From: Candidatus Moraniibacteriota bacterium
GTDB lineage: Bacteria > Patescibacteriota > Minisyncoccia > Moranbacterales > UBA1568
Reading direction: 5' to 3'
NCBI GenBank assembly: GCA_017983435.1
Contig: JAGOBM010000001.1
Coordinates: forward strand, 111,916 to 175,915
Length of the DNA stretch: 64,000 bases
A model generated the notes under the pieces. It did no database searches. It was not told the DNA's origin and saw only the letters and a program-made list of their open reading frames with translations. Below, piece by piece: positions 35,131-58,476 of the stretch. Every line of letters begins with the position of its first letter. The first letter of the stretch is position 1. The position numbers and the translations under genes were made by a program.

Positions 35131-35225
35131 GAAAAAATCCCAGACTGCGGAAGAGCTTTTTTTGATGTACTACGCTTCCGAGCGTACAGCAAGAAAAAAA
35201 TCTTCCGCAGTCTGGGATTTTTCAC
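35131..35225 (+). repeat. F3 hairpin repeat element copy a
   Basis: gaaaaaatcccagactgcggaagag-cttttttt-[gatgtactacgcttccgagcgtacagcaag]-aaaaaaa-tcttccgcagtctgggatttttcac; perfect 21-bp outer stem, A-run 5' and T-run 3'. Confidence 0.85.
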
Positions 35226-35235
35226 ATGAGGTAAA

Positions 35236-35420
35236 GAAAAGCAAGGATACTTTCATTTCCTGCACCGTGCTTCCCTCCGACCGTTTCACGACGTTACGCC
35301 GAGAAAATTTCCCGTGTCCCGACGTCTGACTCGGGGTCGGGAAATTTTCTTGCAGCGCTCGTGTCGGAAACGGGACGGATGAAAGCATATAGTGCGAGAA
35401 ACAAAAGTATCCTTGCTTTC
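35236..35420. repeat. F2 large palindromic repeat element copy b (~185 bp)
   Basis: aagcaaggatactttcatttc...ccgaccgtttcacgacgttacgccgagaaaatttcccgtgtcccgacg-[tctgactcgggg]-tcgggaaattttcttgcagcgctcgtgtcggaaacgggacgg...gaaacaaaagtatccttgctt; central ~130 bp is ~80% identical to copy a. Confidence 0.75.
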
Positions 35421-35580
35421 TAGTGCCTGTATATTAGCTTAAAGACGCATGAGAGATTCTGACGGCGCACGAGGTGAGTCAGTTGGAGGGGTCGTATAAG
35501 AGTCGCGCGGTATTTCTCTTGGCTTTCCGTGAGCTTCATGCTAGGATGGCCGTACTTTCAACGATTATCAGGAGGAAATT

Positions 35581-36153
35581 ATGGAAGTAAAAACATTCGA
35601 TATACCGGGTCTCGCGCTGGTAATCCCTCGGGCGTTCGATGACGATCGGGGGTATTTCTTCGAGTCATGGAACGACGCCACCTATGCGTCTCTCGGGCTG
35701 TTTGATCCGACAGAACGCTTCGTCCAGGACAATGAGTCGGGATCGAAGCGCGGGGTCGTACGCGGACTGCATTTCCAGCGGCCGCCATTCGCCCAGGCGA
35801 AGCTTGTCCGGGTCGTACGCGGCCGGGTGATGGATGTCGCCGTCGATATCCGTGTCGGATCCCCGACGTTCGGCCGGTATCAGGTCGTCTTACTCTCGGG
35901 TGAGAATCGGCATCAGTTCTTTGTTCCAGTCGGATTCGCTCATGGCTTCATTTCGCTCGAGGAGGGGACGATATTTGCCTACAAGGTGACGGCACCGTAT
36001 GCCAAAGAATGCGATGGGGGCATCCGTTTCGACGATTCGACTCTCGATATACCTTGGCCGACCCATGATCAGCTGATCGTGTCGGAGAAAGATCGGCTCT
36101 TACCGACACTCTCCGAATATCTCGAACAACCGGCATTCCGTTATGGAGAATGA
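35581..36153 (+). CDS. rfbC: dTDP-4-dehydrorhamnose 3,5-epimerase
   Basis: 190 aa cupin; RGLHFQRPPFAQAKLVRVVRGRVMDVAVDIR and HGF motif characteristic of RmlC. Confidence 0.85.
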   Translation: MEVKTFDIPGLALVIPRAFDDDRGYFFESWNDATYASLGLFDPTERFVQDNESGSKRGVVRGLHFQRPPFAQAKLVRVVRGRVMDVAVDIRVGSPTFGRYQVVLLSGENRHQFFVPVGFAHGFISLEEGTIFAYKVTAPYAKECDGGIRFDDSTLDIPWPTHDQLIVSEKDRLLPTLSEYLEQPAFRYGE

Positions 36154-36220
36154 ATGCTGCTGATAGCCTTTGAAGCCCTTTCTGATATACTGGAAGGGCT
36201 TTTTCTTTTGGTGCATATCT

Positions 36221-37204
36221 ATGAACATACTCGTGACGGGCGGATCCGGATTCATCGGTTCCAATTTTATCCGCTTCATCCTGGAGACGTATCCTGAAGA
36301 TACGGTGATCAATCTTGATGTGCTGACCTACGCGGGCAATCCCGACAATCTTTCCGAATACCAGAATGATGTCCGGTACCGGTTCGAGCGGGGAGATATC
36401 TGCGATAGAGAGACGGTCGACCGGCTGGTCGCGGCCTGCGATGCTATCGTACACTTTGCCGCTGAGTCGCATGTGGACCGATCGATACTCGGGCCGGAAG
36501 CTTTTGTGCAGACCAATGTCGTCGGGACCTTTACACTGCTCGAGGCGGCGCGGAAATACGGGAAGCGGTTTCATCATATCTCGACCGATGAGGTCTTCGG
36601 ATCGCTCGGTCCAAATGATGCTCCGTTCCATGAGGGGACGCCATATGATCCGCGGAGTCCGTACAGCGCGTCCAAGGCATCGTCGGACCATCTGGTGCGA
36701 GCGTATTTCCATACCTTCGGTCTGCCGGTCACGCTCTCCAATTGCTCCAACAATTATGGGCCGTATCATTTTCCGGAAAAGCTCATCCCACTCGCGATCA
36801 CGAACCTGCTCGAGGGGAAGAATGTCCCAGTCTACGGGGACGGGAGGCAGGTGCGCGACTGGCTGTATGTCGAGGATCACTGCCGGGCTATCGATATGAT
36901 CCTGCGGCGGGGACGAATCGGAGAAACCTACTGTATCGGCGGCAATGGCGAACGGGAGAATATCTGGATCGTAGAGCGTCTGCTCGCATCACTCGGTCTC
37001 GGTGAAGATCGGATCGAGTACGTGACGGATCGCCTCGGACATGATCGTCGCTATGCTATCGATTTTTCGAAGATCCAGACGGAACTCGGCTGGCAGCCAT
37101 CAGTCGATCTCGAGACCGGTCTCGAGAAGACGGTCGCGTGGTTTCGGGAGCATGAGGCATGGTGGCGGAGGGTCAAGAGCGGTGAATACCGAAATATTGA
37201 CTGA
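36221..37204 (+). CDS. rfbB: dTDP-glucose 4,6-dehydratase
   Basis: MNILVTGGSGFIGSNF Rossmann GxxGxxG, YSASKASSDHL (YxxxK), SDR-extended family. Confidence 0.85.
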   Translation: MNILVTGGSGFIGSNFIRFILETYPEDTVINLDVLTYAGNPDNLSEYQNDVRYRFERGDICDRETVDRLVAACDAIVHFAAESHVDRSILGPEAFVQTNVVGTFTLLEAARKYGKRFHHISTDEVFGSLGPNDAPFHEGTPYDPRSPYSASKASSDHLVRAYFHTFGLPVTLSNCSNNYGPYHFPEKLIPLAITNLLEGKNVPVYGDGRQVRDWLYVEDHCRAIDMILRRGRIGETYCIGGNGERENIWIVERLLASLGLGEDRIEYVTDRLGHDRRYAIDFSKIQTELGWQPSVDLETGLEKTVAWFREHEAWWRRVKSGEYRNID

Positions 37205-37259
37205 TTGAATAAAATAGGGTAGAATATTTTCGGTTCATTGCGAAGAAAAGGGGTATGCC

Positions 37260-37994
37260 ATGGAAATGGGAGTCGTTGGAAAGAAGGTCAAACCGGTTAT
37301 TTCCGAATCAGCCCTCCGTCAGCTCTATGAGGCTTTGGAACGGGCTGGATTCACTCAGGCTGAGATCCAGCTCTTGACGGTGACGCCGCTTCTGCTGATG
37401 CAGATCAAACAGGTCTTGCAAGGGCGGATACCGGAGATACGATCCGTGCCGATCGCAAAGGAATGTCTTGAGCCATATGTGCCGGATGTATTTTGTAGCA
37501 TTTGGAAGTCGCGAGATCCAGTAGCGACGCTCGTAGAGCGCGTGCGTCATCGGGGTATCGATATCCTGGTTCAGGATACAGATGTTTTTGATAAGCCGAA
37601 TGAGTCATTGTCTGACGATGAGGATGTTTATTTCATTCGTCTGGCGGTGAATGATTTCCATCTTCCATCCAGAAGGACATATGCACCGCAGATCTTGAAT
37701 CCGGGTATGTTGCAAGAGTGGAGCAGGCAGTCGTTGTCTCCTGGCTGGGAGGTATCGTTCTGTCGGCCGGATGATGTGCTGTACATTGCGCTTCTGGATG
37801 ATATTGAAATACTCATCCGCAAGCCGATCCGTATAGCTATGTCCCCGGTAGTCATTGATGCGCGTCGAGAAATCTTCCAGCTACAATATATAGGGAAGAG
37901 GCTCACTATAGTTCCGATTCCTGCCGGACAGACGGCTGTATTTCCACGACATTTCCCGATGCTGTTTCGTCTATCGAAAATAGAGTCAGCCTGA
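37260..37994 (+). CDS. hypothetical protein, compositionally atypical (GC ~48-50% vs ~58% in neighbours)
   Basis: 244 aa with no recognisable motifs, inserted between rfbB and rfbD; gggtagaat -10-like upstream; strong terminator downstream. Confidence 0.45.
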   Translation: MEMGVVGKKVKPVISESALRQLYEALERAGFTQAEIQLLTVTPLLLMQIKQVLQGRIPEIRSVPIAKECLEPYVPDVFCSIWKSRDPVATLVERVRHRGIDILVQDTDVFDKPNESLSDDEDVYFIRLAVNDFHLPSRRTYAPQILNPGMLQEWSRQSLSPGWEVSFCRPDDVLYIALLDDIEILIRKPIRIAMSPVVIDARREIFQLQYIGKRLTIVPIPAGQTAVFPRHFPMLFRLSKIESA

Positions 37995-38000
37995 CACAAA

Positions 38001-38040
38001 GGCGTCCGAGAGTACCGAGTACTCGAGGGCGTCTTTTTTT
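38001..38040 (+). terminator. intrinsic terminator
   Basis: GC-rich palindrome ggcgtccgagagtaccgagtactcgagggcgtc followed by ttttttt. Confidence 0.55.
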
Positions 38041-38044
38041 ATTA

Positions 38045-38219
38045 CCAAACCCTGTCTGCCGACAGGCAGGGAAGCGAGCGAAACGAAAGTGTACTTTCGT
38101 TTTCGATCCGCCAGCTGGCGGACGGTAAAATCGGGTTAAATACCCCGTGGCTTGCCACGGAAAGTAAAACAAGCCGAGGCTTGTTTTAGTGTCCGGAGCT
38201 TGCTCCAGGGTAAATACCC
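38045..38219 (+). other. hairpin-dense non-coding segment (8 consecutive short stem-loops), candidate structured RNA
   Basis: ccctgtctgccgacaggcaggg; cgaaacgaaagtgtactttcgttttcg; ccgccagctggcgg; gggttaaataccc; ccgtggcttgccacgg; aaaacaagccgaggcttgtttt; ggagcttgctcc; gggtaaataccc. No ORF present. Confidence 0.25.
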
Positions 38220-38230
38220 GTTATATATCA

Positions 38231-38336
38231 CAGAAAAAAATCCCAGACTGCAGAAGAGCTTTTTTTGATGCACTACGCTTCCGAGCGTACAGCAAGAAAA
38301 AAATCTTCCGCAGTCTGGGATTTTTTGTGGTGTATG
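38231..38336 (+). repeat. F3 hairpin repeat element copy b
   Basis: cagaaaaaaatcccagactgcagaagag-ctttttttgatgcactacgcttccgagcgtacagcaagaaaaaaa-tcttccgcagtctgggattttttgtgg; 1-2 substitutions vs copy a. Confidence 0.85.
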
Positions 38337-38385
38337 ATTTTTTTTGTATAACATCGATGTTTCATTGGTTTTTTTCTTAGCTACG

Positions 38386-38455
38386 AAAGCAGATTTTCCC
38401 CTCACTATCGCCTCGGAAGTCTCGGGTATCATGGAAAACCTCTTCCGCAGCTAAG
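38386..38455 (-). repeat. F1 hairpin repeat element copy 8 (reverse orientation)
   Basis: cttagctacgaaagcagattttcc-[cctcactatcgcctcggaagtctcgggtatcat]-ggaaaacctcttccgcagctaag. Confidence 0.8.
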
Positions 38456-38529
38456 AAAAAGCCGAACATTTTTGGAGCTTTGCCATATCTCTCGTATGAT
38501 AGAGGGGCGGATTTTTTAAATACTTGTGT

Positions 38530-39393
38530 ATGCGGACGGTATTGATACTTGGGGCCAAAGGGATGCTCGGCCAGGCGCTCGTGCGCTGCTATGGCGAAGA
38601 TGAGGGTTATCAGGTGATCGGTTGGGATATCGAGGATATCGATGTGACGGATTTTCCTGAGGCGGAGCGGAAGATCAGAGAGGTCGCTCCCGCCGTGATA
38701 CTCAATGCTATCGCTTACAATGCGGTCGATCAGTGCGAAGAGCATGATGATGAATATCGGAAGGCATCGCTGTTGAACGCGGAAGTTCCGGAGTTTCTGG
38801 CACGTCTGGCTCAGGCCATGGAAGCGGCCTTCGTCCACTATTCGACGGACTATGTGTTTGACGGGGAGAGCGAGAGCGGCTACGCGGAGGATGCTCTGCC
38901 ACACCCGCTGTCCCGGTACGGGCAGAGCAAGCGAGAAGGAGAGGAACGAGTGATAGCTATCGGGGGCGTCTTCTATATCATCCGCCTCTCCAAACTTTTC
39001 GGCAGAGCGGCATCCTCGGCGATAGCCAAGAAAAGCTTCTTCGAGAAGATGCTCGAGGTTGCGGAAGGAAAGACTGAAGTCAGCGTGGTTGATGGAGAGA
39101 AGAGCTGCTTCACTTACGCACCGGATCTGGCACTCGCGACCAAGGTGCTGGAGCAGCATGTGGCGCCCTATGGCATCTATCACCTCGTCAATGCAGGCAC
39201 CGCGACGTGGTATGAGGCGGCACAAGAGCTCTTCCGCTTGGCTGGCGTATCGGTAGCCGTGAAGCCGGTCGCCCCCGAAGCGTTTCCTCGTCCAGCCCGG
39301 CGACCGCGCTGCTCTGAGCTTCTGAATACGAAATTCATTCCGCTCCGCCCATACACGGAAGCGCTCGAGGAATTTCTGAAACAGGAACGATAG
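38530..39393 (+). CDS. rfbD: dTDP-4-dehydrorhamnose reductase
   Basis: MRTVLILGAKGMLGQAL Rossmann, YGQSKREGE (YxxxK), RmlD-like length 288 aa. Confidence 0.8.
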   Translation: MRTVLILGAKGMLGQALVRCYGEDEGYQVIGWDIEDIDVTDFPEAERKIREVAPAVILNAIAYNAVDQCEEHDDEYRKASLLNAEVPEFLARLAQAMEAAFVHYSTDYVFDGESESGYAEDALPHPLSRYGQSKREGEERVIAIGGVFYIIRLSKLFGRAASSAIAKKSFFEKMLEVAEGKTEVSVVDGEKSCFTYAPDLALATKVLEQHVAPYGIYHLVNAGTATWYEAAQELFRLAGVSVAVKPVAPEAFPRPARRPRCSELLNTKFIPLRPYTEALEEFLKQER

Positions 39394-39497
39394 GAATGCG
39401 ATATCGATGGTATGTTTATGGCATTTTTTATGTGTTTGTCAACTATACGGGCAGGCGGTGATTTTGCTAGGATGGAATATATCTTGTTAATGATGGC

Positions 39498-40757
39498 ATG
39501 GCTATGAAGTACGATACTTTAAAGAAGGCGGACAAGCAGGTGTATGCGGCCGTGAGAGGCGAAGGGAAACGGCAGGAGGAAGGACTCGAGATGATCGCGT
39601 CGGAGAACTATGTCTCGGAGGCGGTACTCGAGGCGCTCGGGACGGTATTCACCAACAAATATTCCGAAGGCTACCCGGGCCGCCGCTACTATGGTGGACA
39701 GCAATACACGGATCAGGTCGAGACGCTCGCAATCGATCGGGTCAAGAAGCTGTTCGGTGCCGAGCATGCCAATGTGCAGCCACACTCGGGCGCGCAGGCC
39801 AATCTCGCGGTGTATGCCGCGCTTCTCAATCCGGGTGATACGGTGCTCGGTATGGATCTCTCGCATGGCGGTCATCTGACGCATGGTCATCCGGTGACGC
39901 TGCCGGCGAAGGTGTATGATTTTGTCCGTTACAAGACGGAACCGGATGGGAGCATCGATTATAAGAAGCTCGAAGCGCTCGCGAAGGAAACGAAGCCGAA
40001 GCTCATGCTGGCTGGCTTCTCATCGTATACCCGGCAGATCGATTATGAAAAATTCGTGAAGATCGGGAAGAAAGTCGGGGCACTCACAATGATGGATATG
40101 GCGCACATCGCCGGATTGGTAGCGGGCAAAGCAGTGCCGAATCCGGTCGAATATTTCGATATCGTCACCGCGACCACACACAAGACGCTGCGCGGACCTC
40201 GGGGCGGATTGATCCTTTGTCGGGAAAAATATGCCGCCGCTATCGACAAAGCGGTATTTCCGGGGACGCAGGGCGGACCGCATATGCATGTTATCGCGGC
40301 CAAAGCGGTCGCTTTTGGCGAGGCGCTCCGAGCTGATTTCAAGAAATATGCCAAGCAGACTCTCAAGAACGCGAAGGTGCTCGAGCTGGAACTCGTGAAG
40401 GAAGGCGCGCAGGTGCTGTTCGGCGGGACGGAGAATCATATGATCCTCATCGACACGGTGGCGAGCTATGGCCTCTCAGGCAAGGAGGCAGAGGAGCGGC
40501 TCGATGCGATCGGTATCACGGTGAACAAGAATGTCATCCCGGATGATCCTCGTGGTCCGCTCGATCCGTCAGGTCTGCGCATCGGCGTACCGGCGATTAC
40601 GACGCGCGGGATGAAGGAGGCTGAGACCCGACTGATCGCCCGAGCGATAGCGCGTATGCTGCAGGTCTCAGCGGATGATAAGGGATACCAGCGGATCCGA
40701 GTGGTGCTCCGCAAGGAAATCATGCAGCTCTGCAAAGCATTTCCGTTGTATAAGTGA
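39498..40757 (+). CDS. glyA: serine hydroxymethyltransferase
   Basis: 419 aa; SENYVSEAVLEALGTVFTNKYSEGYPGRRYYGG and PLP-lysine region TTTHKTLRGPRGG. Confidence 0.9.
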   Translation: MAMKYDTLKKADKQVYAAVRGEGKRQEEGLEMIASENYVSEAVLEALGTVFTNKYSEGYPGRRYYGGQQYTDQVETLAIDRVKKLFGAEHANVQPHSGAQANLAVYAALLNPGDTVLGMDLSHGGHLTHGHPVTLPAKVYDFVRYKTEPDGSIDYKKLEALAKETKPKLMLAGFSSYTRQIDYEKFVKIGKKVGALTMMDMAHIAGLVAGKAVPNPVEYFDIVTATTHKTLRGPRGGLILCREKYAAAIDKAVFPGTQGGPHMHVIAAKAVAFGEALRADFKKYAKQTLKNAKVLELELVKEGAQVLFGGTENHMILIDTVASYGLSGKEAEERLDAIGITVNKNVIPDDPRGPLDPSGLRIGVPAITTRGMKEAETRLIARAIARMLQVSADDKGYQRIRVVLRKEIMQLCKAFPLYK

Positions 40758-40773
40758 GCCCATCTTTTTGGTC

Positions 40774-40858
40774 TTTCTGGTTACGAAAGCAAATTTTTTC
40801 CTCGCTATCGGTTTAAAGCACCTCGGGCAGCAGAAAAAATCTCTTTCGTAACCAGAAA
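40774..40858 (-). repeat. F1 hairpin repeat element copy 9 (variant-2 core, reverse orientation); partial right-arm fragment of a further copy at ~40893-40925
   Basis: tttctggttacgaaagcaaattttttcc-[tcgctatcggtttaaagcacctcgggcagcag]-aaaaaatctctttcgtaaccagaaa; nearby ggaaaaatttgcttgcgtatcccgaaacag resembles the copy 1 right arm. Confidence 0.8.
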
Positions 40859-40988
40859 GCGCCCTTTATTGAGCATGAGTTATACATGAAGTGAGGAAAA
40901 ATTTGCTTGCGTATCCCGAAACAGATCACCAAAATCGATGCTTCTCTAGGAAGCTAGGCAGCTAATGAAGCTAATAAGCTATTAAAAT

Positions 40989-41777
40989 ATGAAGGGTATT
41001 ATTCTCGCGGGCGGTACCGGGACGAGGCTCCTGCCGCTCACGTCGATCATCTCGAAGCAGCTCTTGCCGGTGTATGATCGGCAGATGATCTTCTATCCGA
41101 TCAACACGCTCATCACGGCGGGCATCACGGATATCCTCATCGTCGTCTCGCCAGCCAACTCGGGGGATTATCTCAACCTACTCGGTTCGATGTTCCGGAA
41201 GCACGGCATCCAGATTTCCTTCGTCGTCCAGAAGCGGCCCGGGGGATTGCCGGAGGCCTTCATCCTCGGCGAGGATTTTCTGGATGGCGGTCCGGTCACG
41301 CTCGTGCTGGGCGACAATATCTTCGAGGATGATTTTTCTGAAGCGATACGTACCTTCGAATCAGGAGGGCGGATTTTCGCAAAAGAGGTATCTGATCCGG
41401 AGCGTTTCGGTGTGGTCGAATTTGATGCCGATGGGACCGTGCTCTCGATCGAGGAGAAACCGGCTCTCCCGAAAAGCCGCTTCGCTATCCCGGGCGTCTA
41501 TATCTTCGATGGGACCGTGTCGGCTGTCTCCAAGAGTCTGGCTCCATCGGCGCGCGGCGAGCTCGAGATCGTGGATATCCATAAACACTATCTCGGACAG
41601 GGATCGCTCGATGTCCGGCCGATCGACGGAGCCTGGTTCGATACCGGGACGCATGACGCGCTGCTTGAGGCGAGTGTCTACGCCAAAGAGAAAGGCATCG
41701 GACAGAAATTCCATCCGCTCGTGAACGAAGCCATCAAAGAGTTCAGTGCGGAATGGAAGAAACTGGTGTCGTTGTAG
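40989..41777 (+). CDS. rfbA: glucose-1-phosphate thymidylyltransferase
   Basis: MKGIILAGGTGTRLLPLT (GxGTRL nucleotidyltransferase motif), RmlA-like; 262 aa. Confidence 0.85.
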   Translation: MKGIILAGGTGTRLLPLTSIISKQLLPVYDRQMIFYPINTLITAGITDILIVVSPANSGDYLNLLGSMFRKHGIQISFVVQKRPGGLPEAFILGEDFLDGGPVTLVLGDNIFEDDFSEAIRTFESGGRIFAKEVSDPERFGVVEFDADGTVLSIEEKPALPKSRFAIPGVYIFDGTVSAVSKSLAPSARGELEIVDIHKHYLGQGSLDVRPIDGAWFDTGTHDALLEASVYAKEKGIGQKFHPLVNEAIKEFSAEWKKLVSL

Positions 41778-41971
41778 ATCCAGTCTGTTTGGCACAAAAA
41801 AAGAAAAGACCCGGAACAGAATACTGTTACGGGTCTTGCCACTCTACTCTAGCGGCGGATTTTCGGACATATTATTATAGCATATAAGACAATGAGAGTC
41901 AATATATACGAGGGGTGCTCGCGTCTAGTACAATAGGAAACGAGCAGTTTTGTCGTTAATCGGAGAAACCT

Positions 41972-42859
41972 ATGACTGAGGGGAAGCAATGGAAAGTAAA
42001 AAAAGCGATCATACCGGTAGCCGGATTCGGAACCCGTTTTCTTCCGGCGACCAAGGCGCAGCCGAAGGAGATGCTGCCGGTCGTCGATAAGCCGGTCGTC
42101 CAGTATCTGGTCGAGGAGGCCGTGGCGTCCGGGGTCGAGGAAATCATTTTCGTGACGGGCCGTGGCAAGCGGGCGATCGAGGATCATTTCGATGTCTCGT
42201 ATGAGCTCGAGGATACCCTGGTCGAGAAGAACAAGCATGACCTGCTTGCGGTCGTCCAGAAGATCTCGACCCTGGCGAAGTTCTCCTATGTCCGTCAGCC
42301 GATTCCGCTCGGCGATGGGCACGCGATCCTGCAGGCCGCACACCTCGTCGACGATGACGAATCGGTGTTGATCATCTTCGGCGACTGCATCTATGATTCT
42401 GCAGTCCCAGCATCCAAGCAGCTTATCGATGCGTACGAGCAGTTCCGGGCGCCGATCATCGGTCTTTCGGAAGTCGAGCGATCGGAAGTATCGAAATTCG
42501 GCGTAATCGATGGCGACCGGGTCGATGATGCGAATATCCGGGTCAAAGGCATCGTGGAGAAGCCGAAGCCGGAAGAAGCTCCATCGACAGCGGTGGCCGT
42601 CGGTAAATATATCATCACGCGCGAGGTGTTCGATGTGTTGGCCGGCATGGAATCCGGCAAGTCCGGCGAGATTCGATTGGCGGATGCATTTGATATCATG
42701 CTTCAGCAGGGCAAGCCGCTCTATGGGCGGATGCTCGAAGGGGAATGGCTCGATACGGGCGACAAATTCAATTTTCTCAAGACAACTATCCATTTCGGTC
42801 TCAAACATCCGGAAGTCGGAGAGAAGCTCCGAAAATTCCTGAAGGATCTCGCGTTGTAG
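41972..42859 (+). CDS. galU: UTP--glucose-1-phosphate uridylyltransferase
   Basis: KAIIPVAGFGTRFLPATKAQPKEMLPVVDKPVVQYLVEEA: canonical GalU N-terminus. Confidence 0.85.
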   Translation: MTEGKQWKVKKAIIPVAGFGTRFLPATKAQPKEMLPVVDKPVVQYLVEEAVASGVEEIIFVTGRGKRAIEDHFDVSYELEDTLVEKNKHDLLAVVQKISTLAKFSYVRQPIPLGDGHAILQAAHLVDDDESVLIIFGDCIYDSAVPASKQLIDAYEQFRAPIIGLSEVERSEVSKFGVIDGDRVDDANIRVKGIVEKPKPEEAPSTAVAVGKYIITREVFDVLAGMESGKSGEIRLADAFDIMLQQGKPLYGRMLEGEWLDTGDKFNFLKTTIHFGLKHPEVGEKLRKFLKDLAL

Positions 42860-42948
42860 CCGTGCCGGATGAAAACAAACACGTGTCATGCCAGGAGGGG
42901 TGAGGAAGCATCCTTTCTTTCAGCGCAGCGTAGGGCTGGTCTCAAATC

Positions 42949-50566: not shown

Positions 50567-50595
50567 GCGTTCGATCGGACTATCGGATATGATGA

Positions 50596-50627
50596 GAAAC
50601 CATCCGCTGGATGGTTTCTTTTTTTTG
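50596..50627 (+). terminator. intrinsic terminator after lepA
   Basis: gaaaccatcc-gctg-gatggtttc then tttttttt. Confidence 0.75.
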
Positions 50628-50671
50628 AAAAAACCGGGAAACCGGGGTATACTGGAAGGGTAATCATTGTC

Positions 50672-50995: not shown

Positions 50996-51031
50996 TCGGA
51001 GCAGAGGGGAGGATTCACCAAAAAATCAAAT

Positions 51032-51472
51032 ATGAAAATTCATAGGGAGCAGATCGATCTGGAGAGCAAGACGCAGATCCAGTTCATGGATATCACCGAT
51101 CGGGTGCAGGAAATCGTCGATCGTTCAGGCATACGTGAGGGTCAGGTGCTTATCTATGTGCCGCATACGACGATGGGTGTGGCTATCAATCACAACGAGT
51201 CGATGCTCCTGCAGGATTTCATGCGTGTGCTCTACAAAATCGTTCCGGTGGATGACCAGTACTCTCATGATCTGTTCGAACTGAAGCGGGATAGCACTTC
51301 CGATGGGCGCAGCAACGGGCATTCGCATTGCAAGGCGATACTGCTCGGCAACAGCGAAACGCTGCCGATCGAGAAAGGAAAATTGTTTCTGACAGAAAAG
51401 CAGAATATTTTTGCGGTGGAGTTCGACGGGTCGCGCAAGCGCGATGTCTATATCCAGGTCATCGGCGTATAA
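51032..51472 (+). CDS. yjbQ: YjbQ/UPF0047 family protein
   Basis: 146 aa; VPHTTMGVAINHNE and GHSHCKAILLGNSETLPI motifs typical of UPF0047. Confidence 0.7.
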   Translation: MKIHREQIDLESKTQIQFMDITDRVQEIVDRSGIREGQVLIYVPHTTMGVAINHNESMLLQDFMRVLYKIVPVDDQYSHDLFELKRDSTSDGRSNGHSHCKAILLGNSETLPIEKGKLFLTEKQNIFAVEFDGSRKRDVYIQVIGV

Positions 51473-51524
51473 GCGGCCCAGCGAGCGCCCTCTGATGCGG
51501 GGACTCGCGTAAGATCTAGCGGTT

Positions 51525-52148
51525 ATGACCCCTCTGGTCGAAACACTCAAACAAAACGGGTATTTGCGTTCTGATACGCTGGTAGAAGCTTTCGAGTCGG
51601 TGACTCGAGCGGATTTTTTGCCGCCTGAATTCGAGGACGAAGCCGATGCCGATATTCCGCTGCCGATCGGACATGGACAGATGGGCCCGCAGCCGAGTAC
51701 GGTCGCGGTGATGCTCGAGCTGCTTGAGCCGAAGGCGGGGCAGCGTATCCTGACGATCGGGAGCGGTTCCGGATGGGTCACCGGTCTGCTCGCCTACGTC
51801 GTCGGCGATCAGGGGAAAATCGTGGCATTTGAGGGTCTCGATGAGATGCATGCCCGGGGGCAGTCCAATCTGGAGAAGTTCGATTTCATCAAGACCGGCC
51901 GGGTCGAATGTCTGCTCGGAGAGGGGAAGGAAGGATATCCGGATGCAGCACCCTTCGATCGCATACTCGTGACGGCTTCGGCTGAAGATATGCCGCTCTC
52001 GTTCCAGCAACAGCTAGCTCTGTCGGGCAAGATGGTGCTGCCGATACGGAACCATCTCTGCTATTTTGAGAAGCGGAGCGAGGAGGAGCTCTACAAAGAA
52101 GAGTTCCCTGGCTTCATATTCATCCCATTGATTCTGAAATCATTTTAG
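51525..52148 (+). CDS. pcm: protein-L-isoaspartate O-methyltransferase
   Basis: ILTIGSGSGWVTGLLAYVV SAM-binding motif I, PIGHGQMGPQPSTVAVMLELLE pre-motif, PCMT-like C-terminus. Confidence 0.75.
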   Translation: MTPLVETLKQNGYLRSDTLVEAFESVTRADFLPPEFEDEADADIPLPIGHGQMGPQPSTVAVMLELLEPKAGQRILTIGSGSGWVTGLLAYVVGDQGKIVAFEGLDEMHARGQSNLEKFDFIKTGRVECLLGEGKEGYPDAAPFDRILVTASAEDMPLSFQQQLALSGKMVLPIRNHLCYFEKRSEEELYKEEFPGFIFIPLILKSF

Positions 52149-52159
52149 AGCGCGTATCT

Positions 52160-53164
52160 ATGCGAAAATTCTTCCTGATAGTCATTTTCGTCATGACGGT
52201 GTCGTCGGTCGTTGTTATCGCACTTCTGGAGAGCTGGTCGGCACAGCATGGTCCGCAGCCGAAGGAACAGTCTTTCGTGCTCCTGAGAGGCGAGGATGCG
52301 CTGGTCGTTGCGACGCATCTCGAAGAGCAGGGTATCGTCCGGAATCGTTTCGGATTTCTCTATGCGCTCGCCCGTCAGAAGAAGCTCAATAGCCTGGTCG
52401 CAGGTGAATACCGTTTATCGGGGAATCTGGCCGCGCAGGATATCGTCGTCCGACTTTCGACCGGTCAGGTCGTATCGCCGGATATCCAGGTAACTTTCCC
52501 GGAGGGATTCACACTGCAGCAGATGGCAGATAGGCTGACGCAGGTCGGGCTTCCGGGTGATGATTTCCTCGAACAAGGGCTGGCTCCCGCATCCGCTTGG
52601 CGATCGGAGTTCTCATTTCTTAGCCTCCTGCCTCCTGGGGGTAGTCTTGAAGGATTCCTCTTTCCTGACACGTACCGCTTTGACCGGAAGGCCGATGCTT
52701 TGGATATCACGCGCAGTATGCTGGCGACGTTTGAGCGTAAGGCGTGGCCGCTCTTTGCCTCTCGTACATCGAAGGATGCCTATGCGGCGCTGGTGCTGTC
52801 CAGTATCGTAGAGACGGAAGTGCGGAGCGATCAGGACCGCGCTCTGGTGGCTGATCTGTTCCTGCGTCGCTTGGCTCTCGATCATCCGTTGCAGAGTGAT
52901 GCGACCGTGAAATACATCCTCGGGAAGAACAAAGTACAGCATACCTTCGAAGAAACGCGGACAGATTCCCCGTACAATACCTATGTGAACAAGGGATTGC
53001 CGCCGGGGCCGATCGCTAATCCGGGTCTGTCATCGATCAAGGCGGTACTGAACCCCGCCAAGAATTCATATTTCTATTTCTTGAGCGATCCGAAGACGGG
53101 AGAGACTGTATTCTCTGTGACGTTTGAGGAGCATGTGCGGAACAAGGCCGCTCATGGCCTCTAA
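52160..53164 (+). CDS. mltG: endolytic murein transglycosylase MltG (YceG-like)
   Basis: N-terminal TM, YceG domain with LQSDATVKY...LPPGPIANPGLSSIKAVLNP. Confidence 0.75.
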   Translation: MRKFFLIVIFVMTVSSVVVIALLESWSAQHGPQPKEQSFVLLRGEDALVVATHLEEQGIVRNRFGFLYALARQKKLNSLVAGEYRLSGNLAAQDIVVRLSTGQVVSPDIQVTFPEGFTLQQMADRLTQVGLPGDDFLEQGLAPASAWRSEFSFLSLLPPGGSLEGFLFPDTYRFDRKADALDITRSMLATFERKAWPLFASRTSKDAYAALVLSSIVETEVRSDQDRALVADLFLRRLALDHPLQSDATVKYILGKNKVQHTFEETRTDSPYNTYVNKGLPPGPIANPGLSSIKAVLNPAKNSYFYFLSDPKTGETVFSVTFEEHVRNKAAHGL

Positions 53165-53182
53165 GATAGCTATTTAATACAC

Positions 53183-54244
53183 ATGAACGGTATACAGCTG
53201 ACACGACGGCAGCGGCTGGTGATCGGACACCTGATCCTCTTGGGTGGAATTTCTGTGCTCTTTTGGACGCTTTTCCGGGTATCGATCGCTCAGCCGGAGA
53301 GTGTGGCGATCCTGAAAGCGCTCTTGGCCGCATCCGCCCTGTTTTCCTGGGTGCTGGTCGGACTGCTCCTCTGGAGGGAACCGGCGGCTCTGTGGGTCGG
53401 TATCGGATGTATTGTCCTGCCAGTGCTTTTCTGGGGATTCGATGCGCGCGCGTATGCTGGGCTTCTCGTGGCCGTCTTCTGCTGGTGGGCGGCAGCGAGA
53501 GAAGTATCTCGGGAGACGGAGGACCGACTCTCGTTCTCTTCGGGGCGCTCCTTCGCCGTCGCGAAACAGATGGGAGTGCTCGGTTTCTCGATCCTGATTT
53601 CCATCGGGTATTTCCTCTCCATCCGGACGCTGTCGTGGGAGGATCTCGTCTCGCGTTTCGAGCTGCGGGCCGGGACCGTCGAGAAGATGGCGACGCTGGT
53701 CGGATATGTCCAGCCTGAGCTGGCCGAGCTCGGCCAGGATAGCCGAACGGTCGATGAGTATCTCCGATCACTCAGCGGACTTTCTTTTTTGAATACTTCA
53801 GATGAAACACTGCAATTTGAGCAGCTGAACGATCAGGTGGGGCGATTGCGTGAGCAGGGCATCAATATCGAATTTACCGGTGATGCCCTGACACTCGTGC
53901 GCGGAGCAGCGGAGGAGAGCTCTCTTGCATCGGGGCGCCAGCAGCTGGGCGAATTGGCGGGACGTACGGTCAGCGGAGATGAGCAGGTTTCGGCGCTGTT
54001 CGCCGAGGTGCTTGAGAAGAAGATCTTCGCGATCGTCGAAGGGAGCCGGATGCAGGAGCGGATACCGGATCGGACCCTACCGGTGTTCATCGCGCTTCTT
54101 TTTTTCCTGACGGTCTGGCCGCTGGCGCTTATCCTGTTCTCACTCTGGAGCTTCGTGGCGGCGCTCTGTATCGGATTGTTCCGGTCATGGCGTTGGATCG
54201 AGATCAGTCGGCATGCGGCCCTGCAGGATCGGATGGAACGATAG
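53183..54244 (+). CDS. hypothetical polytopic membrane protein
   Basis: 353 aa; 4 TM N-terminal, central soluble region, 2 TM C-terminal; no recognisable family. Confidence 0.4.
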   Translation: MNGIQLTRRQRLVIGHLILLGGISVLFWTLFRVSIAQPESVAILKALLAASALFSWVLVGLLLWREPAALWVGIGCIVLPVLFWGFDARAYAGLLVAVFCWWAAAREVSRETEDRLSFSSGRSFAVAKQMGVLGFSILISIGYFLSIRTLSWEDLVSRFELRAGTVEKMATLVGYVQPELAELGQDSRTVDEYLRSLSGLSFLNTSDETLQFEQLNDQVGRLREQGINIEFTGDALTLVRGAAEESSLASGRQQLGELAGRTVSGDEQVSALFAEVLEKKIFAIVEGSRMQERIPDRTLPVFIALLFFLTVWPLALILFSLWSFVAALCIGLFRSWRWIEISRHAALQDRMER

Positions 54245-54369
54245 CGGCCGAGCGGATTCCGCTCCGTGCGAAACGGATCTGGCTGTCTGGTTAGCACTCA
54301 ATTGTTTTGATTGCTAACTTTTTATTTTTCAGGTATCCTGGAGCGTGTATTTCCAAACATGTATTTCTT

Positions 54370-55467
54370 ATGGCTCAGAATTATTATGATCTCCTTGGCG
54401 TGGGGAAATCGGCATCGCAGGATGATATCAAGAAGGCTTTTCGGAAGCTGGCGCATCAGCATCATCCGGACAAATCAGGAGGGGACGAAGCGAGATTCAA
54501 AGAGATTAATGAGGCCTACAGTGTCCTCTCGGATCCGACGAAGCGTGCGCAGTACGATCAGTTCGGCCGGACAGCCAATGGTTCAGGCGGATTCTCCTCC
54601 CAAGGCGGACCAGCCTCGGGCTGGGATTTCAGCCAGTTTGGTGGAGCGAATGGCAATGTACATTTCGATTTCGGAGGTGGCGGTTTTGAAGATATCTTTT
54701 CAGATATTTTCGGCGGTGCGAGGCAGGGCAGTCGGGCGCGGGCTGGATCAGATATCCAGGTCGATGTTGAGATTTCATTCGAGGAAATGGTGAAGGGGGC
54801 GCACAAGGAAGTGTCGCTCAGGAAGCTGGCGGCCTGCGAACACTGCCGGAGCACCGGAGGAGAGCCTGGATCCAAGGAAGAATCCTGCAAGGCCTGCGGC
54901 GGCCACGGACAGGTCAAGAAACATGTCCGCAGCATCTTCGGAGTCATCGAGCAGGCCGTAGCGTGCGATACGTGTCGCGGCAAAGGAAAGACATATACAG
55001 AAGCGTGCCGTCAGTGTCGGGGCGAAGGCCGGGCGCAGCAGGAAGAGAACATCGGTATCGATATCCCAGCGGGCATCCAGGATGGGCAGGCACTCTCATT
55101 ACCGGGTCATGGTGCTGCGGGGGAATCGGGCGCGCCGGCTGGCGATCTATTCGTCGTGGTACATGTCCGGACTCATGCGCAGTGGATGCGGCGCGGAGAC
55201 GATATCTATTCGACGATAGAGATCAGTTATCCGGAGGCTGTGCTGGGCGATAAGGTTTCGGTCGCAACCATCGATGGTCCGGTTTCCATGAAGGTTCCGG
55301 CGGGTACCCAGCCAGGGGAGGTCTTCCGGATCCGCGGCAAGGGTATCCCACATCTCGGCCGCTACGGACAGGGGGATCATCTGGTCACTGTGAAGCTCGT
55401 CGTGCCGAAAAAACTTTCTCATGCGGAAAAGGCATTGATCAGTCAGCTTAAGAAATCCGCTCGTTAG
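54370..55467 (+). CDS. dnaJ: molecular chaperone DnaJ
   Basis: J-domain with HPD (YYDLLGV...HQHHPDK), G/F-rich linker, four CxxCxGxG zinc-finger repeats (CEHCRSTG, CKACGGHG, CDTCRGKG, CRQCRGEG). Confidence 0.85.
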   Translation: MAQNYYDLLGVGKSASQDDIKKAFRKLAHQHHPDKSGGDEARFKEINEAYSVLSDPTKRAQYDQFGRTANGSGGFSSQGGPASGWDFSQFGGANGNVHFDFGGGGFEDIFSDIFGGARQGSRARAGSDIQVDVEISFEEMVKGAHKEVSLRKLAACEHCRSTGGEPGSKEESCKACGGHGQVKKHVRSIFGVIEQAVACDTCRGKGKTYTEACRQCRGEGRAQQEENIGIDIPAGIQDGQALSLPGHGAAGESGAPAGDLFVVVHVRTHAQWMRRGDDIYSTIEISYPEAVLGDKVSVATIDGPVSMKVPAGTQPGEVFRIRGKGIPHLGRYGQGDHLVTVKLVVPKKLSHAEKALISQLKKSAR

Positions 55468-55553
55468 GGAGGAAGAACGGCCCGCGGTGTGTCTTGGTGA
55501 TATGCTATACTGCTCCTGATATCCGCACAGATAATTTCGTGTTTCCTGACCGT

Positions 55554-56099
55554 ATGACGAATCCAAAAAAAGTGCTGCTCGTAGACGATAATGTGGAAGT
55601 CCGCAGCTTGTACGCCGAGATCTTCCGTCAAGCTGAGTTCGATGTCCGCGAGGCGAATGACGGTCTCGAAGGCCTGGAGATGGCGAATCAGATCGTCCCG
55701 GATATCATCCTGTCCGGCATTATTATGCCGCGTATGGATGGATTTCAGCTCGTGGAGACGCTGCGGAAGAATGTGACGACCGGCAGCGTGCCGATCATCT
55801 TTCTCTCGCATCTCGGTCGGGAAGAGGATGAGTCGCGTGCGCGGGAGCTCAAGGTGGATGATTTCATCGTGCAGGGCATGGTATCGCCGATAGAGGCGCT
55901 GCAGCGAGTCAAGAATATTCTGGAGAACAAGACATACGTTGTGAATATCGATCCGCATAGTCTCGATGCCGAGCGCTTGCTCAAGGACCTGGGACTGGAT
56001 GAGAATTTCAATACGCCGGACGGCGGGCGCTGGGTGCTCTCTCTTCGTCTGCGGAGTCTTGAGAAGAAGCAGTTCGATGCTGAGCTGGCAATCGATTAA
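55554..56099 (+). CDS. orphan response regulator (REC domain only, no DNA-binding output domain recognised)
   Basis: KKVLLVDDNVEVR...DIILSGIIMPRMDGFQL: phospho-acceptor Asp context, conserved T/K; tgctatact -10 upstream; no histidine kinase adjacent. Confidence 0.7.
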   Translation: MTNPKKVLLVDDNVEVRSLYAEIFRQAEFDVREANDGLEGLEMANQIVPDIILSGIIMPRMDGFQLVETLRKNVTTGSVPIIFLSHLGREEDESRARELKVDDFIVQGMVSPIEALQRVKNILENKTYVVNIDPHSLDAERLLKDLGLDENFNTPDGGRWVLSLRLRSLEKKQFDAELAID

Positions 56100-56120
56100 T
56101 TCGGACTGCCTGAGGAAATT

Positions 56121-57824
56121 ATGGCTTTATGGAAATACCGCATCCGTGAGCGCCGGCCGCTTGCGGGGGCAGGTCATCCTGTCATCAAACTGTTGCTGGA
56201 CGCGAGAGGGTATGCCGATGAAAACGATCGGGAGCGTTTTTTTGCTCCTCATTACGGACGTGACCTACATGATCCGTTTTTGTTTTCCCAGATGGATCGG
56301 GCAATCGATCGGATCGGTGCTGCACTCAAAGAGGGAGAAACGATCGGTATTTTCGGTGATTACGATGCCGACGGCGTAACCTCATCGGTCGTGATGCGTG
56401 AGGCACTTGAGGCGCTCGGCTGCCGGGTAGTGGTCTATATACCGAAAAAAGATACTGAGGGACACGGTCTGAATGAACGAGCACTCGATTTTTTTGTCGA
56501 ACAGGGAGTGCGGCTCATGATGACGCTTGATTGCGGCATGATGAATCATGCGGAGATAGATCGGGCGAACGAGCTCGGTCTCGAGGTAATCATCGTCGAC
56601 CATCATCATGTGCCGGAAACATTGCCCGCCGCCGTCGCTATCATCAACCCGAAGCTTCGCGGCGAGACCTACCCTTTTCATGATCTCTGCGGCGCTGGGA
56701 CGGCTTTCAAAGTCGCGCAGGCGCTCTTCCGTCGTTTCGCACCGGAACGCGAAGAAGAACTCAAATGGCTCTTGGATGTCGTAGCGACCGGCACAGTCGC
56801 TGATGTCATGCCGCTCGTCGGGGAGAATCGGGTCTTGGTGAAGTATGGGCTGATCGTTCTGTCGCGGACCCGCCGAGTCGGATTTCAGGAGATGTTTCAG
56901 GTCGGCAAGATGGGTATCGATGAGGAGAAGCAGCCGACCGCGCGCGATATCGGCTTCCAGATCGCACCGCGCATCAATGCCGCGTCGCGTATGGCTCATG
57001 CCATGCTGGCCCACGAGCTGCTCATGGAGCGCGATGCTGTGAAGGCTCGGGTACTCGCGTTGGAACTCGAGGCGCATAACGTCGCTCGTCAGAAGATCTC
57101 TACGGCGGCGACCGATCAGGTCAAGAAGCTGGCGCAGGAGCAATACCAGGATAAGAAATTTATTTTCGCGGTCGGAAAAGAATATCCCTTCGGTATTGTC
57201 GGACTGATTGCTGGCCGGGTCGCGAGTACGTATCGCAAGCCGACCTGCGTTCTCTATCGGGGGGAGACGGAAAGTATGGGATCATTTCGGAGCATCCCCG
57301 AATTCAGTGTCATCGAAGCGATCGAGCAGTGCGCTGATCTTCTGGTCAAATTCGGCGGGCATGCGCAGGCAGCCGGCATGACTATCAAGAATGAGCATCT
57401 AGATGCTTTTTATGAACGTTTCAACACATTGGTAGAAAAAGCGCTTCAGGATACCGTCACGGAGCCGGAACTCTGGATCGACCTATCGCTTGATCCGGCC
57501 GATATCGTGCCTGAGTTGGTGACAGATATCGCGCGCTTCGCTCCCTTCGGAGAAGGTAATCCCGAGCCGGTCTTCCATCTGGCAGATATGCTGGTGAAGC
57601 AGGCTCGCTTTGTCGGAGCAGGTAATAAACACCTCAAATTGGCGCTGGCTTCGGCAGATGGGTCGAAAGTATTTGATGCTATCGGCTTCTCTCTCGGGGA
57701 ACGCTTCCCAGATATCGTTCCCGGGGACCGATTTGACGCGGTTTTCAACTTGGAAGAGAATACGTGGAATGGACGGACATCCATTCAGCTCAAATTGATT
57801 GATCTTTGCAAGAAGGGAGCCTAA
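56121..57824 (+). CDS. recJ: single-stranded-DNA-specific exonuclease RecJ
   Basis: DHH motifs (IGIFGDYDADGVTS, VIIVDHHH) and DHHA1 domain; 567 aa. Confidence 0.85.
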   Translation: MALWKYRIRERRPLAGAGHPVIKLLLDARGYADENDRERFFAPHYGRDLHDPFLFSQMDRAIDRIGAALKEGETIGIFGDYDADGVTSSVVMREALEALGCRVVVYIPKKDTEGHGLNERALDFFVEQGVRLMMTLDCGMMNHAEIDRANELGLEVIIVDHHHVPETLPAAVAIINPKLRGETYPFHDLCGAGTAFKVAQALFRRFAPEREEELKWLLDVVATGTVADVMPLVGENRVLVKYGLIVLSRTRRVGFQEMFQVGKMGIDEEKQPTARDIGFQIAPRINAASRMAHAMLAHELLMERDAVKARVLALELEAHNVARQKISTAATDQVKKLAQEQYQDKKFIFAVGKEYPFGIVGLIAGRVASTYRKPTCVLYRGETESMGSFRSIPEFSVIEAIEQCADLLVKFGGHAQAAGMTIKNEHLDAFYERFNTLVEKALQDTVTEPELWIDLSLDPADIVPELVTDIARFAPFGEGNPEPVFHLADMLVKQARFVGAGNKHLKLALASADGSKVFDAIGFSLGERFPDIVPGDRFDAVFNLEENTWNGRTSIQLKLIDLCKKGA

Positions 57825-57825
57825 C

Positions 57826-58206
57826 ATGCTGTTTCGACCCAAACAGGTGGTCTGCGTCTGTATCGGTGTGCGGATAACCTCGACCTGCTGGAGACTCGGT
57901 ACGGTCGTGAAGGATGTCTCCTCGAGACAGAACACACTGTATAAAGTAGCGGTATCGATGCGTGATCCGGATGGATGGGATGACGGTTCGGAAAGACAGG
58001 GTGAGGAGCACGAATGGTGTAGTAATATCATCCTGCCGGATGATTCGCTCTCGCTTCTGTTCGCTCGAGTATCGAGCCGGAGTTTCCTTATCCGGTTTGC
58101 TTCGAACGAAGTATTGCAGTATCGCGAGCAGTATACCGTGTCTCCGATGCAGCTCTGTGTCGCTGACCCAGGCGTGCTGTGGAAGAAAATCTTCCAGAAG
58201 ACATGA
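57826..58206 (+). CDS. hypothetical small protein
   Basis: 126 aa from ATG 57826 with aggga SD; Cys/Trp-containing, no family; followed by a strong terminator. Confidence 0.3.
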   Translation: MLFRPKQVVCVCIGVRITSTCWRLGTVVKDVSSRQNTLYKVAVSMRDPDGWDDGSERQGEEHEWCSNIILPDDSLSLLFARVSSRSFLIRFASNEVLQYREQYTVSPMQLCVADPGVLWKKIFQKT

Positions 58207-58236
58207 CTGCCCAGAACCTTGGGCAGTCTTTTTTTA
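58205..58236 (+). terminator. intrinsic terminator
   Basis: gactgcccag-aacctt-gggcagtc then ttttttt. Confidence 0.75.
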
Positions 58237-58255
58237 CTGCGGTCGTTATTGTGTC

Positions 58256-58346
58256 GCCGGCCCTCATCCAGCCAGAAGTTTTTCCTGAAGCCCGAGACTT
58301 CTGAGGCGATAGTGAAGGAAAAATTTGCTGGCTGGGCGAGGGCCTC
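58256..58346 (+). repeat. F1 hairpin repeat element copy 10
   Basis: ggccctcatccagccagaag-tttttcc-[tgaagcccgagacttctgaggcgatagtgaagg]-aaaaatttgctggctgggcgagggcc. Confidence 0.8.
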
Positions 58347-58377
58347 TGTGTTATTGATCTTGGAATTATGAATAGCG

Positions 58378-58476
58378 TGAAAAAATCCTGGGGTGCGAGA
58401 AATTTTTTTCTTGCTGTACGCGCTCGGAAGCGTAGTGCATCGAAAAAATCTTTCTCGCACCCCAGGCTTTTTTCGA
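58378..58476 (-). repeat. F3 hairpin repeat element copy c (reverse orientation, different outer stem)
   Basis: gaaaaaatcctggggtgcgagaaa-ttttttt-[cttgctgtacgcgctcggaagcgtagtgcatc]-gaaaaaa-tctttctcgcaccccaggcttttttcg; loop is the reverse complement of the F3 core; outer stem differs from copies a/b but still pairs. Confidence 0.8.

Follow-up and report, generated by a model that had tools for sequence, protein, structure and literature searches.

A dispersed family of intergenic hairpin repeats with a terminator-like branch in a Candidatus Moraniibacteriota bacterium

A stretch of 64,000 nucleotides from the genome of Candidatus Moraniibacteriota bacterium (assembly GCA_017983435.1), referred to below as the window, contains multiple copies of a hairpin of approximately 90 nt that can be grouped into three types, F1, F2, and F3. 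We consider it probable, at roughly 60%, that these hairpins form a lineage-specific, non-autonomous mobile family, similar in kind to REPINs (hairpin-forming pairs of REPs, i.e., repetitive extragenic palindromes) and to MITEs (miniature inverted-repeat transposable elements), that is confined to a narrow clade of Candidatus Moranbacteria and in which F3 is a fully paired, A/T-flanked, terminator-like derivative. The family resembles a non-autonomous mobile element because it is multi-copy, strictly intergenic, present in either orientation, and gained, lost, replaced, or flipped between close relatives. A literature search retrieved no description of such repeats in Moranbacteria or other bacteria of the candidate phyla radiation (CPR), and the family is apparently undescribed so far.

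Three apical types on one hairpin scaffold

The three F3 copies of the window are listed in Table 1. Re-reading of these copies confirmed the coordinates and the anatomy reported in the first-pass annotation, namely, the core, its T7 and A7 shoulders, the outer stem, and the flanking A-run and T-run. The common plan is A5-7, an arm of 16-18 nt, T6-7, the core GATGYACTACGCTTCCGAGCG(CG)TACAGCAAG, A6-7, the arm complement, and T5-6. The 21-nt pattern GATGYACTACGCTTCCGAGCG occurs exactly three times in the window and was absent from 100 dinucleotide shuffles, and an exact core of 30-32 nt is common to all three copies. A looser core pattern led to six relatives in the window, which are the F1 copies of Table 1.

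That F1 and F3 belong to one superfamily, as proposed initially, is borne out by three lines of evidence. First, the consensus cores of both types are identical at 21 of 31 positions, with an alignment score of 12 as compared to -5.0 ± 2.9 for shuffled cores, and none of 5,000 shuffles reached 12. Second, there are two hybrids, at L018 (UGAUGCCC-UACGCUUCCGAGCGUA-CAGCAAAG) and at L028 (UGAUGCCC), in which an F1 5' part is joined to an F3-type Watson-Crick apical helix (L numbers denote fetched loci). Third, a single covariance model, R1, built from 27 copies, recovers both types, along with the third type, F2, which was found via inverted-repeat and BLAST comparisons and has the F1 scaffold with the apex GGYGCUUUAARCC. 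The types differ at the base of the apical part, which is 5'-GA..GA-3' (tandem G.A/A.G) in F1 and F2 but U-A/A-U in F3, and which consists of U-A/A-U or other Watson-Crick pairs in L018 and L028. The F3 hairpin is hence fully Watson-Crick, and F3 has in addition gained an A-run on the 5' side and a T-run on the 3' side.

Folding of the individual F3 copies resulted in minimum free energies of -49 to -57 kcal/mol, with z-scores of about -9 to -10, on either strand, and in a core that pairs as U7/A7, UGY/GCA, and UACGCU-UCCG-AGCGUA. Each F3 element is predicted to be a single interrupted hairpin of ~40 bp capped by a UCCG tetraloop; the unusually large loop described earlier is replaced in these folds by a helical, tetraloop-closed core. 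Sequences from the window and from other genomes were aligned, at first 23 and later 27 copies, and gave the same consensus. RNAalifold identified compensatory changes in 22 of 32 pairs. For a named structure, 91.5% of the cells were paired, as compared to 74.5% in column shuffles and at most 61% with slid partners, and changes on both sides were noted in 23 of 30 pairs. The outer part of the plan common to all F1, F2, and F3 members is a stem of ~17 bp with a CGAAAG/CUUUCG box, followed by a U-run/A-run helix. Further inward there are a small internal loop, a helix of 3-5 bp (UGAUG versus the YAGYR side), a C-rich bulge or loop of 2-3 nt, and the apical module.

The outer stem of F3-c had been regarded as completely different from that of the other two copies. 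However, the stems of F3-c (CCTGGGGTGCGAGAAAGA), F3-a/b (CCCAGACTGCGGAAGAGC), and F1/F2 (CYGGGNNRCGAAAGAGR) align column by column, with transitions that are compensated on the opposite arm, and are diverged, compensated versions of one stem. The notion of a conserved core dropped into unrelated stems has to be abandoned, since the entire ~90 nt are homologous. We likewise rejected an insertion of the core into pre-existing terminators, since the outer stems of F1, F2, and F3 align throughout and share the CGAAAG(A)G/CUUUCG box.

The scan of the window with R1 identified 13 elements, which scored 54-101 bits on one strand and 16-37 bits on the other. All of them are intergenic, mostly with a stop codon or terminator on one side and the next promoter on the other, with 7 on the plus and 6 on the minus strand, and the family accounts for ~1.8% of the window. 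The elements end in GTCTCC..GGAGAC or AAAAATCC..GGATTTTT. A more distant long hairpin at 28328-28415 (minus strand; R1 score of 21.7 bits), with arms ending in ..AAAATTTCCTG / CAGGAAATTTT.. and ACTCCCGAGTGTACGTAGTGGCA as its apex, may belong to the family as a diverged fourth type.

Table 1. Hairpin elements and neighboring canonical terminators in the window
Feature	Position	Strand	Remarks
F1-1	2817..2906	+	Apical part intermediate (..GACAGCAAGG); 101 bits
F1-2	6830..6916	-	Covariance model
F2	6952..7041	-	Apical GGYGCUUUAARCC, decayed G.A motif; 65.5 bits
F2	8398..8488	+	86.7 bits
F1-3	13636..13722	+	32 nt past the stop codon of a UvrA-like gene
F2	24658..24749	-	Covariance model
F1-4	24849..24934	+	Decayed: no GATG, AG for GA; 53.9 bits
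F3-a	35132..35222	+	A6, arm TCCCAGACTGCGGAAGAGC, T7, core GATGTACTACGCTTCCGAGCGTACAGCAAG, A7, arm complement, T5; 75.8 bits (covariance model)
F3-b	38234..38326	+	Stem as in F3-a, one A.C mismatch on the plus strand; 80.5 bits
F1-5	38371..38460	-	Convergent with F3-b; 94.5 bits
F2	40771..40861	-	14 nt past the stop codon of the SHMT gene
F1-6	58257..58346	+	Convergent with F3-c; 73 bits
F3-c	58380..58474	- (core strand)	Core with an extra CG; its stem is the commoner F3 stem; 76 bits
Canonical intrinsic terminator of khpA	35087..35118	+	Terminator scan (call at 35087-35112); just upstream of F3-a; kept in relatives with an empty site
Canonical terminator of the 244-aa gene	38001..38040	+	Read by eye (hairpin, then T7), not among the calls of the scan of this region; upstream of F3-b; conserved in L048, L030, and L051
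Canonical terminator	58205..58235	+	Terminator scan (call at 58205-58228); precedes F1-6 and F3-c; conserved in L044 and L046

Elements also often occur as pairs that are ~20-50 nt apart and mostly convergent, which is reminiscent of bacterial interspersed mosaic elements (BIMEs); examples are 38238/38371 and 58257/58383 in the window, 1581/1696 in L033, 1086/1193 in L022, 973/1119 in L025, and 855/986 in L035. An unusual outer stem, CCCTCAYCCAGCCAG, is common to the F1 copies at 58257-58346 of the window (recJ-rnhA gap) and at 3021-3104 of L048 (khpA-rmlC gap), each of which adjoins an F3 copy, and this suggests that an F1 copy and its F3 neighbor can be moved or copied as a pair. A recurrent (T)CTA(G/T) follows directly the 3' end of many F1 and F2 copies (e.g., 2907-2912, 8489-8495, and, for the minus-strand copy at 24658-24749, 24652-24657), and in about half of the copies a bulged G in the 3' arm generates TTGCTT, which could give rise to an outward-facing -35/-10-like pair.

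Other structures were noted next to F3 copies. Between F3-a and rmlC, at 35238-35421, there is a nested hairpin of ~190 nt, with outer arms AAAGCAAGGATACTTT / AAAGTATCCTTGCTTT and an inner part GAGAAAATTTCCCG..CGGGAAATTTTCTTG. The orthologous gap in L048 and L051 lacks this hairpin, which has no Rfam match and matches R1 weakly (E ~1). An insertion of ~180 nt at 38041-38220, which separates F3-b from the terminator of the 244-aa gene, is made up of several small hairpins, including an 86-nt imperfect palindrome at 38134-38219, and is absent from L048, L030, and L051. The window also encodes two UvrA-like paralogues of 858 and 1009 aa (2945-5521 and 10575-13604), situated within 8 kb of one another, with a UvrC-like gene between them (9020-10276), and uvrB is located just upstream of the window (L062).

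Distribution and in-place inversion among relatives

The RecJ and RmlB proteins of the window are 100% identical to those of a metagenome-assembled genome (MAG) designated 'Candidatus Moranbacteria bacterium'. Among 185,579 species representatives, the strict core pattern matched a single MAG, GCA_964580285.1 (L018-L020, L039, and L056; a GTDB representative), which shows synteny with the window at a nucleotide identity of 70-83%. This MAG is titled 'uncultured Bdellovibrionales bacterium', an NCBI label that is probably wrong. The core pattern also matches 16 metagenome contigs, and 17 pattern matches in viral contigs were all due to chance, without hairpin context. Rfam 15 provided no match in the window at the gathering threshold, and at the E-value threshold only generic miRNA-hairpin matches far below the gathering score were obtained; no tRNA or tmRNA was found in the window.

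The number of copies varied largely among relatives. There are 4 copies in 8.3 kb of L048 (a 93% relative) and 1 copy in about 35 kb of unbiased sequence of the CAZOKB MAG, as compared to none in the region covered by L051-L055 (90% relatives) and none in 65 kb from three relatives whose RecJ is 75% identical. Orthologous gaps that lack the element were observed in L051-L055, L039-L046, and L020. This is illustrated by the khpA-rmlC gap, for which the lengths in the window, L048, L051, and L056 are 506, 399, 140, and 89 nt, respectively, by the gap before rmlD (530, 328, and 99 nt in the first three of these), and by the gap before the RNase H gene (324 nt in the window versus 62-84 nt in four relatives). 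The F3-c site is empty in L039, L042, L044, and L046. The gap that harbors F1-1 spans 297 nt in the window and 179 nt in L020, where BLAST found no match to F1-1; a covariance model scan of L020, which includes this gap, gave a single match, at 6638. The repeats sit between a conserved canonical terminator and a conserved downstream promoter.

In five orthologous elements, the orientation is reversed in place while the flanks are collinear. F3-a is on the plus strand in the window and on the minus strand in L048, F3-b and F1-5 are on plus and minus, respectively, in the window and on minus and plus in L048 and L030, and F1-2 is on minus in the window and on plus in L020. The asymmetries of the arms flip along with the core. 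We discarded an assembly artifact as the cause of these flips, since perfect matches between arms span 22-29 nt, below the final k-mer length of commonly used assemblers, and since orientations were reproduced in independent assemblies of one species (L048 = L049 = L050; window = L057 = L038). Contigs of other assemblies end inside or beside elements. In chloroplast non-coding DNA, close relatives may differ by an in-place inversion of the center of a hairpin, with flanks that remain collinear, a phenomenon termed minute inversion. Here, in contrast, the whole repeat unit is flipped, including its arm asymmetries, and the unit is a member of a dispersed family.

Such flips would also be the mode of action if the elements functioned as DNA sites, either as cruciform palindromes that bind proteins or absorb supercoils, as small invertible switches, or as DNA-uptake signals. 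In addition to the five inversions, the strand symmetry of F3, the A-tracts and T-tracts inside and outside the hairpin, and the type IV pilus parts encoded in the window (PilC), which are compatible with DNA uptake, would agree with a role of this kind. However, a double-stranded function provides no reason for the excess of G.T over A.C in F1/F2 described below, and the orientation is identical in independent assemblies of one species. Recombinase-driven invertons known so far are far longer than the 30-90 bp segments considered here, and DNA-uptake signals measure about 10-12 nt and are also found inside genes, unlike these strictly intergenic elements of 90 nt. We consider DNA-level sites improbable.

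Evolution between orthologous copies was also noted within the arms. Between the F3-a copies of the window and L048, there is a compensated change from CCCAGAC/GTCTGGG to CCCGGAC/GTCCGGG (A>G / T>C). The outer stem of an orthologous F1 copy differs largely between the window and L048 but is still paired, which suggests either replacement or fast compensated evolution.

Strand asymmetry and terminator-like flanks

A comparison of the 5' arm with the reverse complement of the 3' arm over all copies revealed 64 G.U versus 17 A.C mismatches (p = 1.4e-7). The core-sense strand is the more stable one in 23 of 25 F1, F2, and hybrid copies, by ~8.5 kcal/mol on average (p = 8e-7; per-class means of -9.6, -4.6, and -7.8). 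In F3, both strands are equivalent, with 3 versus 4 copies, a mean difference of +0.2 kcal/mol, and 6 G.U versus 10 A.C mismatches. The window genes that were checked run on the plus strand, whereas the copies are distributed 7 to 6 over the two strands, and neither a mutation bias of the chromosome strands nor selection through co-transcription with neighboring genes can therefore cause the asymmetry. The simplest reading is selection on the element's own single-stranded form, be it a transposition intermediate or its own transcript, with RNA and single-stranded DNA (ssDNA) being indistinguishable here. The mobile family would propagate or be maintained via one particular strand in its single-stranded form (RNA or ssDNA), which a trans-acting protein might read through the invariant apical motif.

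The same data invite the explanation that the elements are structured RNAs that serve the host, either as cis-acting hairpins in 3' untranslated or intergenic regions or as small RNA genes, with the apical motif recruiting an RNA-binding protein or RNase and F3 being a variant that does not need a kink. Covarying stems combined with invariant loops and bulges are a signature of functional RNA, and this view can also draw on the predominance of G.U over A.C, on the better folding of the sense strand, and on the compensated change in an orthologous copy. Furthermore, G.U pairs are conserved at the fixed alignment columns 22/79, 25/74, and 33/66, and the x1-x3 pair of F1/F2 switches among G.A, A.G, and C-G. 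F1 and F2 can, in addition, be written as a kink-turn (k-turn), with UGAUG/YAGYR as C-stem, a CCC bulge, G.A/A.G, and an NC-stem. The pairs 33-64, 34-63, 36-61, and 37-60 of this register can be drawn in 23-26 of the 27 sequences, yet an alternative register fits equally well; we infer a putative k-turn in F1/F2 whose register is not separated from this alternative by covariation. The -1b/-1n pair of F1/F2 is mostly G.U, which differs from k-turns, and the motif is lost in L018, L028, and F3, which does not match the k-turn consensus.

Several observations are difficult to reconcile with host-functional RNAs. Apart from the ambiguous register, the random orientation implies transcription of the weaker antisense hairpin for half of the copies, unless each has its own promoter, and there is no conserved sequence upstream of F1/F2. 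Moreover, close relatives lack copies at the same sites, the copy number differs more than tenfold between sister species, and no Rfam match was obtained. Taken together, we consider this explanation rather unlikely. The A-run of F3 is adjoined by a flank of the form (G)TTAT..GAATAG(C/T)G(TG) at five loci, i.e., 35120-35131 and 58367-58379 in the window, ~2880-2894 in L048, ~4788-4808 in L024, and ~1563-1578 in L033. At some loci it is on the core-5' side and at others on the core-3' side. A small RNA with its own promoter was rejected for F3, since the shared (G)TTAT..GAATAGCG flank is a poor -10 element that lacks the final T and is located on either side of the core.

We also considered a relationship to the TIGR-Tas stem-loop arrays or box C/D RNAs of CPR bacteria, in which case the hairpins would be guide-RNA-like units. 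The host is a CPR bacterium, F1 contains UGAUG, some copies contain CUGA, and a k-turn may be present; TIGR stem-loop units likewise are palindromic stems around C/D motifs (PMC12045711). Yet TIGR arrays have dual variable spacers between the C and D motifs and are located next to a Nop-domain gene (PMC12045711), whereas the inner part of the family studied here is constant between copies, which are dispersed singly or as pairs rather than arrayed, CUGA is not conserved (CCGA in about half of the copies), and no Nop-domain or tas gene was seen nearby. The elements are not TIGR or box C/D units, and a guide function is hardly credible. Inspection also led us to reject a hammerhead or box C/D reading of CUGAUG..CUGA..GAA, which lacks A9 and stem III and has CCGA for CUGA in about half of the copies.

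Turning to termination, the flanking A-run and T-run reported for each F3 copy were read in all three window copies, and flanks of A3-7 (5') and T3-7 (3') are present at all F3 loci, of which there are six or more; F1 and F2 lack the T-run. When transcribed from either side, F3 would generate a GC-rich hairpin followed by a U-tract and might act as a bidirectional intrinsic terminator or insulator, or as a long duplex that RNase III could cleave. Judged from these features, bidirectional terminator behavior is plausible. In L024, an F1 and F3 pair is located between convergent genes, and only the F3 hairpin has a T-run downstream of the plus-strand gene, an arrangement that, together with the symmetry of F3, would fit a bidirectional terminator or insulator. 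F3 resembles bidirectional intrinsic terminators in that both strands, which fold equally well, present an A-tract, a GC-rich stem, and a T-tract. Its hairpin, however, is ~40 bp long and has internal loops, as compared to 5-14 bp, and its asymmetric core is invariant in sequence. A simple terminator scan misses F3 because its stem is long and interrupted.

F3 copies might alternatively be simply ordinary bidirectional intrinsic terminators, duplicated or converged and unrelated to mobility, which would account for the A-run, GC-rich hairpin, and T-run on both strands and for the position between transcription units. The initial annotation had named, as a result that would speak against its proposal, that F3 copies elsewhere be ordinary terminators without a conserved loop. 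F3 copies are not one-off terminators because the same core recurs with other stems elsewhere, both at further loci and in further genomes (L022/L024, L025, L033, L030, and L048). The identical asymmetric 30-nt core is present at at least six independent loci in several species, the F1/F3 shuffle test excludes chance sharing of the core, and F3 is homologous to F1/F2, which are devoid of T-runs. Furthermore, relatives with empty sites still possess the canonical terminator, and F3 is not needed as a primary terminator in the window because another terminator precedes each copy (Table 1). Plain termination is already largely refuted and, in our view, very improbable.

The reading that we prefer, a mobile hairpin family with F3 as its terminator-like derivative, also has to face a number of observations that weigh against it. 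The location of all three window F3 copies downstream of another terminator is one of them, and the 44-nt center of F3, which is invariant across species, would exceed what a terminator requires. All five orthologous comparisons were flipped, which exceeds the expectation for random flipping (~3%). No clean target-site duplication could be defined, since filled and empty sites are too diverged; in the corresponding analysis of L048, T-runs flank the F3 block, although F3 carries its own T-run. With regard to a partner gene, Pfam scans of the window proteins, as well as the called genes of the fetched loci, revealed only ordinary housekeeping genes, and neither a transposase nor another mobilizing gene was seen in ~85 kb of this genome. 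Both mobility and termination are inferred from the sequence.

Comparison with known repeats and significance

REPINs are hairpins of 89 bp, and one class with conserved A/T flanks has been interpreted as co-option for termination (PMC3337134). The similarities to the REPIN and REP-BIME systems, which are mobilized by RAYT (REP-associated tyrosine transposase, or TnpA-REP) enzymes, are extensive: in both cases, near-perfect hairpins of ~90 nt are present in many extragenic copies with compensated changes, are thought to act as ssDNA or RNA, and cluster in alternating orientation. There are also clear differences. The REPIN unit is an imperfect palindrome of 20-40 nt, tagged by GTAG or CGTC, of which two are inverted around a variable spacer, whereas the arms of the present elements are not palindromes themselves, no GTAG/CGTC tag was found, and the center of the hairpin is conserved and its base variable, i.e., the reverse of a REPIN. 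The host is a CPR bacterium rather than a proteobacterium. REPIN systems are further defined by a single-copy RAYT (HUH Y1 transposase) gene flanked by the repeats, and no RAYT was found when the annotated genes in ~85 kb of this genome were inspected. Judged by the defining features that were tested (tag, conserved center, and no RAYT seen), the family is not a member of REP/REPIN.

Hairpin MITEs such as Correia/NEMIS in Neisseria, ERIC, and RUP are intergenic repeats of 100-150 bp that occur in either orientation, are co-transcribed, and can supply terminators, promoters, or RNase III sites. The family shares with them the intergenic location, the long RNA hairpins, and the presence in either orientation. 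As in MITEs, which measure 50-500 bp and have terminal inverted repeats, the entire element is an inverted repeat of ~90 nt without coding capacity, and insertion polymorphism was observed between related genomes. It differs from these MITEs in that there is no sequence similarity to them, no demonstrable target-site duplication, and no parent insertion sequence seen in the loci examined, as well as in the highly conserved non-canonical apical motif and the three interchangeable apical modules.

CPR/Patescibacteria genomes (~1 Mb) are regarded as streamlined, but selfish or recruited repeats can still expand there, as illustrated by a family that makes up ~1.8% of 64 kb here while sister species lack it. 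The family represents a natural experiment in which one scaffold carries three apical modules, with one branch being strand-specific with non-canonical pairs and another being strand-symmetric with terminator flanks. It raises the questions of how a repeat becomes a terminator, what recognizes the invariant apical motif, and how a hairpin is flipped in place. On a practical level, assemblies of these organisms break at the repeats, and a covariance model would aid the annotation of Moranbacteria MAGs. A more far-reaching version, which we regard as doubtful, is that F1 and F2 are dispersed single-stranded modules (RNA or ssDNA) bearing a k-turn, which a CPR protein copies, replaces, or flips in place, and that F3 has lost the kink and has been domesticated as a bidirectional terminator. 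If true, this would point to a new hairpin-recognizing mobility or inversion system in ultra-small genomes.

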